From Acutalibacteraceae bacterium (GTDB taxonomy: Bacteria; Bacillota; Clostridia; Oscillospirales; Acutalibacteraceae): a DNA stretch of 64,000 nt. The position numbers and the translations under genes are program-made. Below, piece by piece: positions 9,577-11,958 of the stretch. Under the pieces are notes generated by a model, which saw nothing but the letters and a program-made list of their open reading frames with translations, did no database searches and was not told the origin of the DNA. How positions within the stretch are numbered: position 1 is the stretch's first letter; the number at the start of each line of letters is the position of its first letter. The stretch spans positions 7,898 to 71,897 of the forward strand of contig JAZPYE010000002.1 of the NCBI GenBank assembly GCA_045544035.1, given 5' to 3'.

Positions 9577-11085
9577 ATGGCTTACTATTTCAATGACGTT
9601 TCACACACCTTTAATGAGTATCTTTTAGTGCCCGGCTATTCTTCTGCCGAGTGCATCCCCGCAAACGTGAGTTTAAAAACTCCTCTTGTTAAGTTTAAAA
9701 AGGGTGAAAAGCCTGCAATCCAAATGAACATTCCCATGACCTCTGCAATTATGCAGTCGGTTTCCGGCGAAAAGCTTGCAGTTGCTCTTGCCCGTGAAGG
9801 CGGCGTTTCCTTTATTTTCGGCTCACAGTCAATTGAGGATGAGGCCGCAATGGTTGCCCGCGCAAAGAACTTTAAGGCAGGCTTTGTTGTAAGTGATTCA
9901 AACATTCGCCCCGAGCAAACCCTGGCTGATATTTTAGAGCTTAAAGAGCGCACAGGTCACTCCACCGTTGCTGTTACTGCCGATGGCACCGCAACAGGTA
10001 AGCTTATGGGTATTGTTACCAGCCGTGATTATAGGGTAAGCCGTATGTCTCTCGACACAAAGGTTAGCGAATTTATGACACCTTTTGCTGACCTTATCTG
10101 CGGCGACAAGAACACCACCTTAAAGGAAGCCAACAACATTATTTGGGATAACAAATTAAACGCACTTCCCATTGTTGATGATAACGGCAACCTTTTGTAC
10201 ATTGTTTTTAGAAAAGACTATGATTCCCACAAGGAAAACCCAAACGAGCTGCTTGATGCCGACAAGCGTTACATTGTTGGCGCAGGTATTAACACTCGCG
10301 ATTATGAAGAAAGAATCCCCGCCCTTGTTGAGGCAGGCGCCGATGTTCTTTGCATTGACTCCTCTGAAGGATTCAGCGAATGGCAGAAGCGTACCTTACA
10401 GTTTGTAAGAGAGAAATACGGCGATACCGTTAAAATCGGCGCAGGTAATGTTGTTGATAAAGAAGGCTTTTTGTTCCTTGCCGAATGTGGCGCTGACTTT
10501 GTTAAGGTTGGTATCGGCGGTGGCTCCATTTGCATCACCCGCGAAACCAAGGGTATCGGCCGTGGACAGGCTACTGCCCTTATTGATGTTTGCGCCGCAA
10601 GAGATGAATATTATGAGAAAACCGGCATCTATGTTCCCGTTTGTTCCGATGGTGGTATTGTTCACGACCATCATATGACTTTAGCCCTTGCAATGGGCGC
10701 CGACTTCCTTATGCTCGGCCGCTACTTTGCAAGATTTGATGAGAGCCCCACAAGCAAAATTGCCATTAACGGAAACTACTACAAGGAATATTGGGGTGAA
10801 GGCTCCAACAGGGCTAGAAACTGGCAGCGTTACGACCTTGGCGGCGATAAGAAGCTATCCTTCGAAGAGGGTGTTGACTCCTATGTTCCCTATGCCGGAA
10901 CACTTAAGGACAACGTAGGTCTTTCTTTAAGTAAGGTGCGTTCCACCATGTGCAACTGTGGTGCACTCACCATTCCCGAGCTCCAGAAAAAGGCAAAGTT
11001 AACCCTTGTTTCTGCAACAAGTATCATTGAAGGTGGCGCCCACGATGTTATTCAGAAGGACACCACCACAAACGCCATTAAATAA
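9577..11085 (+). CDS. guaB: IMP dehydrogenase (with CBS pair insert)
   Basis: 502 aa. Catalytic loop [13 protein letters not shown], a CBS region, and GGI..D..KALA-like motifs. GGAGAGG RBS. Confidence 0.9.
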
Positions 11086-11090
11086 AAGTG

Positions 11091-11120
11091 TTGACAAAAC
11101 ACCCTGTTTAATGGGATAAT
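11091..11120 (+). promoter_or_regulatory. Near-consensus sigma-A promoter with extended -10, reading into the structured element
   Basis: TTGACA (11091-11096), an 18-nt spacer, then TGgGATAAT (GATAAT = 11115-11120). Confidence 0.55.
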
Positions 11121-11397
11121 AGGGTAGAGCAAATAATCCGAACCCGCCTCAAAGTGGCTTATTTCGGCGCTTTTTACCCAATCCATTCTTGTAAGGTGTC
11201 ACCTTACTGCGCCTGTACTGAATAAAAATCACTCGAAATCTTCTCTCTTTGAGGTCAAAGATTTTTGAAAGAGCGGATTTTCGTTCAGACGCGGCACAAA
11301 ACGCAGTTAATCCTGATGGATTAACGAGTATTTTAACAAAGTATGAGCGAAAATCCGCCTTTTAAAAACAGAGTTTGGATTATTTGCTCTACCCTAA
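11121..11397 (+). ncRNA. Candidate structured RNA or MITE-like element; 24-bp closing stem with two internal multi-helix arms; class not recognised
   Basis: 11120-11143 pairs with 11373-11396 (one G-U). 11147-11154 pairs with 11247-11254. 11166-11170 pairs with 11209-11213. A hairpin spans 11191-11207. 11273-11283 pairs with 11348-11358. A hairpin spans 11306-11325. No credible ORF. Confidence 0.45.
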
Positions 11398-11412
11398 TAG
11401 GTGATTTATAGA

Positions 11413-11958
11413 ATGAGAGTTATTGCAGGTATTGCAGGCGGCAGAAAAATCGCCAGCCTTCCGGGGCTTGATGTGCGCCCAACTGCCGAAAAGGTTAAAG
11501 AGGCAATTTTCAGTTCCATTCAGTTTGATTTGGAGGGTCGCCGCTTTCTCGATTTGTTCGCAGGCTGCGGCCAAATGGGGATTGAGGCGCTGAGCCGCGG
11601 GGCAAAAAGCGCTACCTTTGTAGATAATTCTGCAGTTCATTTAAGAACCGTTAAGGAAAACCTTGCGGCCACCGGTCTAGAGAGCGGTGCAAAGGTTGTT
11701 TGTGCTGATTTTGCTTCATTTCTTGCTACCTGTTCTGACACCTTTGATATTGCTTTTTTAGACCCACCTTATTATGAAGGGCTTACTGGCGATGCCCTTT
11801 TAAAAACCTGTCAGGTTATGAGTGCCTTTGGCAAAATTCTTTGCGAACATCCAAAGGAAATTTCGTTGCCTGATACTGTGAATGATTTTTACTGTTATAA
11901 AGAATATAATTACGGCAAAATTGTTATCTCGGCTTATAGGAGGAAGGAAAATGAATAA
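11413..11958 (+). CDS. rsmD: 16S rRNA (guanine966-N2)-methyltransferase
   Basis: Start at ATG 11413, after AGGTGA. Motifs MRVIAGIAGGRKI, LDLFAGCGQMGIEALSRGA and FLDPPY. Confidence 0.9.
   Translation: MRVIAGIAGGRKIASLPGLDVRPTAEKVKEAIFSSIQFDLEGRRFLDLFAGCGQMGIEALSRGAKSATFVDNSAVHLRTVKENLAATGLESGAKVVCADFASFLATCSDTFDIAFLDPPYYEGLTGDALLKTCQVMSAFGKILCEHPKEISLPDTVNDFYCYKEYNYGKIVISAYRRKENE

Follow-up and report, generated by a model that had tools for sequence, protein, structure and literature searches.

The closest described counterparts of the element studied here are short repeats of other bacteria. The Correia/NEMIS elements of Neisseria have 24-bp terminal inverted repeats and TA termini with target duplication, and the stem formed by their repeats is a substrate of RNase III (PMC2229807). 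RUP of Streptococcus pneumoniae is mobilised by IS630-Spn1, a link that was inferred from the similarity of the terminal repeats, and effects on mRNA stability have been proposed for ERIC (PMC2229807). The window analysed here, the whole 64,000-nt stretch of DNA from an Acutalibacteraceae bacterium, very likely contains an element of this kind: positions 11120-11396 are read with high confidence as one copy of a ~277-bp non-autonomous DNA transposon (MITE) that carries no gene, is bounded by terminal inverted repeats of 24 bp and causes duplication of its TA target. The element is of an ordinary kind, yet it has a conserved fold and is missing from close relatives at the same spot.

The 277-bp block at 11120-11396 has no ORF, is bounded by 24-nt inverted repeats and lies downstream of a near-consensus promoter, and the genes flanking it encode IMP dehydrogenase, RsmD and CoaD. 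The features of the locus are as follows.

11083-11085, plus strand: stop codon TAA of guaB, whose ORF (9577-11085) is an IMP dehydrogenase equivalog (984.7 bits)
11091-11120, plus strand: native rsmD promoter, TTGACA, 18 nt, TGgGATAAT, with 11 of 12 consensus matches and an extended -10 (TG)
11120-11121, no strand assigned: left copy of the duplicated TA target; TA...TA flanks every copy and subfamily, and a single TA stands at the exact empty sites of two other loci
11120-11143, no strand assigned: left terminal inverted repeat including the TA, conserved in 27 copies, in which position 12 shows compensatory changes
11146-11255, plus strand: arm A, with closing helix CCTCAAAG/CTTTGAGG and an apical hairpin at 11191-11207; four pairs of helix 2 are changed on both sides
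11262-11368, plus strand: arm B, a long imperfect hairpin with apical hairpin GTTAATCC-TGAT-GGATTAAC at 11306-11325, seen in fold and alignment
11318-11396, plus strand: right-hand 79-nt module (element positions 199-277), the most conserved part of the 27-copy alignment, retained in short forms
11373-11396, no strand assigned: right terminal inverted repeat, its TA at 11395-11396, seen in pairing and alignment
11399-11404, plus strand: Shine-Dalgarno sequence AGGTGA of rsmD, 2 nt past the element; the same TAGGTGA stands at empty sites
11413-11958, plus strand: rsmD coding sequence with ATG at 11413, an RsmD equivalog (TIGR00095, 132 bits vs a cut-off of 117.5)

In the closing stem, 11120-11143 (TAGGGTAGAGCAAATAATCCGAAC) pairs with 11373-11396 (GTTTGGATTATTTGCTCTACCCTA) through 23 of 24 Watson-Crick pairs and one G-U pair. 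This stem and the inner helices CCTCAAAG/CTTTGAGG, GGCGC/GCGCC, GTAAGG-TGTCA-CCTTAC, GCGGATTTTCG/CGAAAATCCGC and GTTAATCC-TGAT-GGATTAAC were all found where the first-pass annotation, made from the letters alone, had placed them, and the near-consensus promoter that it had described upstream was likewise found with 11 of 12 matches. It had also located AGGTGA near the end of the element, correctly, though at 11398-11403 and thus one position from the actual 11399-11404. The minimum-energy fold of the element includes every inner helix but GGCGC/GCGCC. The plus strand folds at -112.5 kcal/mol (z = -12.0 vs dinucleotide shuffles) and the minus strand at -116.6 kcal/mol (z = -10.6), indicating that the signal is that of a DNA palindrome and gives no evidence for a one-strand RNA.

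The block had earlier been described as having no credible ORF; no ORF is conserved among the element copies, and the longest open frames vary in strand and frame from copy to copy, by which a small-protein reading was ruled out. A consensus scan found no promoter pointing outward from within the element. By eye, the minus strand at window 11330-11342, opposite the invariant CGAGTATTTTAAC, was seen to carry TGTTAAAAT, a word like an extended -10. It faces guaB, has no -35 box and was not reported by the consensus scan.

Copies of the element were searched for in the window's own assembly (G000; 1.37 Mb in 21 contigs), a search that the first-pass annotation had set beforehand as the test for a MITE. 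Five full-length copies were found (100, 96, 95, 93 and 80% identical), together with 79-nt right-end fragments, members of related subfamilies and one solo terminal repeat; all copies in this genome are intergenic and lie in short spacers. The congeners G001, G002 and G005 have ~17, 11 and 11 element matches, respectively. The flanks of six other G000 copies were then used as queries against five congeners, and both filled and empty alleles were found. At contig C13 position 98875, G000 reads AATT-TA-(GGGTAGAG...CTCTACCC)-TA-TGGGAG and G001, G002 and G005 read AATT-TA-TGGGAG; at position 189075 of the same contig, G000 reads CCT-TA-(element)-TA-TTT and G005 reads CCT-TA-TTT. These filled and empty pairs match base for base, showing that the target TA is duplicated. 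The site in the window lies in a variable spacer of TA-rich repeats, where a TA duplication and a plain insertion are indistinguishable. Dispersed copies, terminal inverted repeats, target duplication between filled and empty alleles, lack of coding capacity and presence/absence polymorphism were thus all observed, as was the TA target duplication by which the IS630/Tc1-mariner type is recognised. What the first-pass annotation had offered as an alternative, a MITE, is therefore borne out by the multiple copies in the genome, the TA target-site duplications and the empty sites in relatives.

Several further sites carry partial traces. At a G001 locus (L168; contig C91, 9471-9910) orthologous to a full element on G000 contig C8 (4607-4883), G001 retains a 7-nt TAGGGTA and lacks 4 nt of the flank (GACA), which looks like a footprint of imprecise excision or deletion. 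G000 contig C11 has a solo 23-nt terminal repeat (TAGGGTAGAGCGAATAACCCGAA) at 79552-79574, flanked by two genes of the same direction; it is probably what is left of a copy that was deleted. A G002 locus (L178; contig C11, 12760-13235) orthologous to G000 contig C17, 205651-205729, has a 40-nt insert (TTGGCGAGAGTCGAACCCGATACGG...) that ends in a right-repeat remnant (TTCGCTCTACCTTA) and whose first part is unrelated to the element.

No element is found in the guaB-rsmD spacer of congeners G002, G003 and G004, and that of G001 contains just the element's last 79 nt. All four share the promoter (TTGACA, 18 nt, TGnGATAAT) and the ribosome-binding site TAGGTGA, and the promoter is kept in each of the five species of the genus and also in a Logan contig (L197), whether the element is present or not. 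The RsmD protein encoded by L197 is identical to that of the window, and its 61-nt spacer is without the element. In G002, G003, G004 and L197, the -10 box and the start codon are separated by 24-36 nt free of the element. Because promoter and ribosome-binding site are conserved in relatives from which the element is absent, the promoter is native to rsmD, and the element came in recently, into the interval from the -10 box to the ribosome-binding site; the T of the TA target is also the final base of the -10 box. The rsmD start codon is ATG in the window (11413-11415) and GTG in the empty-site strain (L197:346-348), G001 and G002. In the same comparison of window and L197, the 8-10 nt from the ribosome-binding site to the start codon also differ, with TTTATAGA in one and TTTTAA in the other.

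To describe the family as a whole, 27 distinct full-length copies were aligned (mean identity 91%), and their consensus fold again consists of the closing stem and two arms. In 17 of the 77 consensus pairs both partners have changed; shuffles give 5.5 ± 1.5 such pairs (0 of 500), and slid partners give 4-10. For example, the apical stem of arm B, GTTAATCC/GGATTAAC, is replaced by GCCAATAC/GTATTGGC or GCAAATAC/GTATTTGC in other copies, and at the base of arm A CCTCAAAG becomes CCCCAAAGG, its partner changing along. Of the two strands, the minus strand has the better fold, with alifold energies of -82 vs -65 for the plus strand and in 25 of the 27 copies. Distant subfamilies occur in the window's genome, G013, G016, G053 and G054; they have TA flanks, a length of 271-282 bp and a core ~75% identical, and their outer terminal sequences differ. 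The ~75% identity that persists between subfamilies whose ends differ belongs to arm B. In G000, sister subfamilies that share TA flanks, length and core lie on contigs C7 (100040-100300), C6 (2250-2420) and C13 (207200-207450), with ends TA-AGCAAACACGAATAATCC... and TA-GCCAAAGCATTTAAACTCGAAC.... One element, L132:1055-1331, is a chimera with the left end of a sister subfamily (TAAGCAAACTCG...) and the right end of the window subfamily (...GCTCTACCCTA). Since its ends derive from different subfamilies, its outer terminal repeats do not pair.

Truncated forms recur and comprise element positions 199-277, 164-277, 1-77, or 1-77 joined to 194-277. At the C11 site, the orthologues are a full element in G001, 114 nt in G005 and 79 nt in G000; at C13 position 189075, they are full in G000 and G002 and 79 nt in G001. 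In both cases the right junction is shared between short and full forms at orthologous sites, indicating that the short forms are deletions in place. The breakpoints fall in the two apical hairpin loops, including the loop of hairpin A (element position 77/78) as a recurrent one, as well as at the ends of the element; left junctions are slightly variable. We infer that the short forms arise by structure-prone or microhomology-mediated deletion.

The family is patchily distributed. Among 60 relatives searched, it was found in three of the five congeners and in a few other lineages, and within the window's own bacterial family it is mostly absent beyond the genus. Strong matches (E ≤ 1e-40) were found in 18 out of 401 genomes of the order, most of them in one other family (f19, genus g50), whose best copy is 90% identical to that of the window. 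Within the genus, the housekeeping genes are less similar, with identities to G003 and G004 of 83% for guaB and 69% for rsmD. The patchy presence, combined with an element identity above the housekeeping identity, suggests horizontal spread. By their titles, public contigs matching the element belong to uncultured MAGs from the gut of humans and ruminants, assigned to Acutalibacteraceae, Oscillospiraceae and 'Clostridia'. A degenerate pattern scan over public genome contigs was too loose, with many chance matches, and is informative just for the Acutalibacteraceae and Clostridia loci and their organism names. Plasmid, phage and IMG/VR collections gave zero matches to the element.

A mobilising enzyme was sought, and none was found. 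The IS630-type DDE_3 domain (PF13358) is absent from 12 genomes carrying or neighbouring the element, which is weak evidence because MAG assemblies often lose insertion sequences. Of 301 genomes of the order, 11 have IS630-type genes, and none of these loci has the ends of the window subfamily or a significant match to them. One of them belongs to a genome of the same bacterial family (G061): L182:113-1277 is a decayed IS630-type element of 1165 bp, flanked by TA and with 26-29-nt terminal repeats, whose transposase is broken into a 169-aa N-terminal and a 92-aa C-terminal ORF. Its ends (TATAGYAAACGACAATAAT) resemble those of the sister subfamily (TAAGYAAACACGAATAAT), at best in 13 of 18 positions (shuffle p 0.003-0.07), but do not resemble those of the window subfamily (p ~0.16). 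This likeness weakly suggests an IS630 link; it is a lead toward such a link and no demonstration of one. Other candidates were rejected. DDE_Tnp_1 (PF01609) occurs in G013 only and has unrelated ends, and L067 and L083, in which the terminal repeat adjoins an interior unlike that of the element, proved to be solo remnants instead of parent insertion sequences. The element repeat (GCGAATAA) may resemble the IS5 end; the TA duplication is inconsistent with the 4-bp duplication of IS5.

Among ~19 independent full-length copies with a callable neighbour, a gene start lies ≤ ~20 nt from the right end (window orientation) in 16 and at the left end in 3, the gene calls being crude; by our own arithmetic, this 16:3 bias corresponds to a two-sided binomial p of ~0.004. 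Moreover, 7-8 of the ~10 solo right-end copies adjoin a gene start. In 7-8 copies the upstream stop codon is formed by the target TA and the first G of the element, which regenerates TAG, as is directly visible in the alleles that G002 and G001 have at the C11 site. In these compact genomes, insertion is tolerated mostly at TA sites that lie between a stop codon and the next ribosome-binding site, and this accounts for the positions. The orientation bias could reflect selection against the more polar orientation, or a function.

The headline of the first-pass annotation, a novel structured RNA gene, and its narrower form, a dedicated ncRNA gene or riboswitch-like leader specific to rsmD-coaD, have the strong promoter immediately upstream and the very stable fold in their favor, but we regard such a dedicated RNA as barely credible. 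Multiple copies with TA duplications occur at loci that have nothing in common, four relatives lack the element in the orthologous spacer and yet conserve the promoter there, and both strands of the element fold equally well. In addition, the sole match of the window to Rfam at gathering thresholds is a tRNA elsewhere in the window, and at E ≤ 10 the element region yields just a spurious mir-368 (26.6 bits vs a threshold of 58), so that no Rfam family fits the element among the riboswitches, 6S, raiA, OLE, HEARO, ROOL, GOLLD, T-box, RNase P and SRP RNAs. A MITE by origin could instead have been co-opted, the family or its 79-nt right module acting at the RNA level as a processing site, 5' stabiliser or translation modulator and the window copy tuning rsmD-coaD. 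The excess of pairs changed on both sides (17 against 5.5 ± 1.5), the gene starts at the right rather than the left end of full-length copies (~16 vs 3), the solo right-end copies next to gene starts (7-8 of ~10) and the strong conservation of the right module are all consistent with co-option, and a selfish, neutrally decaying MITE needs neither compensated helices nor an orientation bias. On the other hand, the site is empty in close relatives including the strain with identical RsmD, so rsmD does not need the element; the better-folding strand (alifold -82 vs -65; 25 of 27 copies) is antisense to most flanking genes; the compensatory changes could equally maintain DNA hairpins for transposition; and the bias could result from purging of the more polar orientation. 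Co-option is considered unlikely.

The missing partner also bears on how the element moves. Against a plain MITE stand the lack of an autonomous partner with matching ends, the absence of DDE_3 from the 12 genomes and the blank plasmid, phage and viral collections, and mobility might not depend on a DDE transposase at all: a palindrome folded as a single strand could be recognised by its structure, e.g. by a small nuclease or a HUH/RAYT-like enzyme, with the 'TA duplication' being an insertion in the middle of T|A. This would suit subfamilies that keep 271-282 bp and a homologous core while their outer ends differ, the chimera L132 with its mismatched ends, the fold conserved by compensation and the cognate transposase not being found, and sequence alone cannot separate a TA duplication from a blunt T|A insertion. 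However, 24-bp inverted repeats with TA flanks are the textbook signature of IS630/Tc1-mariner elements (PMC2229807), IS630-type elements do occur in the order (11 of 301 genomes), one of them in the same family with TA flanks and ends weakly like those of a sister subfamily (p 0.003-0.07), and absence from MAGs counts for little, making a non-DDE route improbable. More broadly, the ~276-bp family may be something beyond selfish DNA, with either an RNA-level role, as a portable leader or an intercistronic processing or stabilising module, or structure-dependent, enzyme-driven transposition through a folded single strand. This broader reading, to which we assign a low probability, derives from the fold and length kept across subfamilies, the orientation of ~16 of 19 copies, the placement from stop codon to ribosome-binding site and the repeated deletions that spare the 79-nt module.

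For a TA-duplicating MITE, the following course of events at rsmD is proposed. The family resides in uncultured gut Oscillospirales (Acutalibacteraceae and neighbouring families) and moves within genomes and between lineages, its transposase probably acting in trans from outside this genome; the TA duplication points to an enzyme of the IS630/Tc1-mariner type. The rsmD promoter existed already, and the window copy inserted at a TA that lies between its -10 box and the ribosome-binding site of the gene. Transcription would start ~6-7 nt after GATAAT, inside the left repeat, and the leader of the rsmD-coaD mRNA would then comprise the entire element, being structured and ~290 nt long where it would otherwise measure ~12-25 nt. 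In this mRNA the repeats are predicted to form a ~17-bp stem around the two arms, with its end 2 nt ahead of AGGTGA. The likeliest effect would be near-neutral or a modest shift in mRNA stability or translation. In Firmicutes, a 5'-proximal stem can protect an mRNA against 5'-end-dependent decay, and by analogy with the Correia elements the long stem might be a substrate of RNase III; 5' protection, RNase III cutting or neither may thus apply to the rsmD leader. Since relatives manage without it, the element is not required for rsmD expression. The suggestion that it is a cis-regulatory leader of rsmD-coaD consequently stands as regards position, from native promoter to ribosome-binding site and probably co-transcribed, and fails as regards origin, because the element arrived by transposition and a strain with identical RsmD lacks it.

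These results remove a false candidate for a new large structured RNA and are a warning that ~275-bp strongly folding intergenic blocks in the genomes of gut Clostridia are often copies of this MITE family. The rsmD-coaD locus with the element and that of the identical-RsmD strain without it form a natural pair for the effect of a 270-nt hairpin leader on an mRNA. With its conserved fold, its orientation bias, its use of stop-codon TAs in which the element's first G restores TAG, and its apparent spread between families, the family is a reasonable model for the persistence of MITEs in compact genomes of 1.2-1.6 Mb.

Compared with described systems, the element is like Correia/NEMIS in being gene-less, in occurring in full-length and internally deleted forms, and in lying usually between genes and, presumably, being co-transcribed with its neighbours (PMC2229807). 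The likeness is one of architecture only, presumably with no sequence relationship, and the phylum is another; Correia elements measure ~107-155 bp, whereas this element measures ~277 bp and has a two-armed branched interior kept by compensation. RUP is likewise a Firmicute MITE that inserts at TA, but it has 107 bp, short repeats and an identified parent, whereas a parent with ends matching those of the present element was not found. Like the element, ERIC/IRU are hairpin repeats that lie between genes and occur in long and short modular forms, and they are co-transcribed, as the element probably is. The same holds for BOX repeats. Unlike in ERIC/IRU and BOX, the short forms of the element are deletions in place that involve no assembly of modules, and its terminal repeats are much longer. 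The large structured RNAs raiA, OLE, HEARO/omega RNA, ROOL, GOLLD and 6S resemble it in size class and in a branched predicted fold; in contrast to them, the element has no Rfam match, is multi-copy with target duplications, is unconserved at orthologous loci and folds on both strands. In summary, the element functions like the TA-duplicating MITE class represented by Correia and RUP, and differs from it in its size (277 bp), its compensated branched fold and its taxon.
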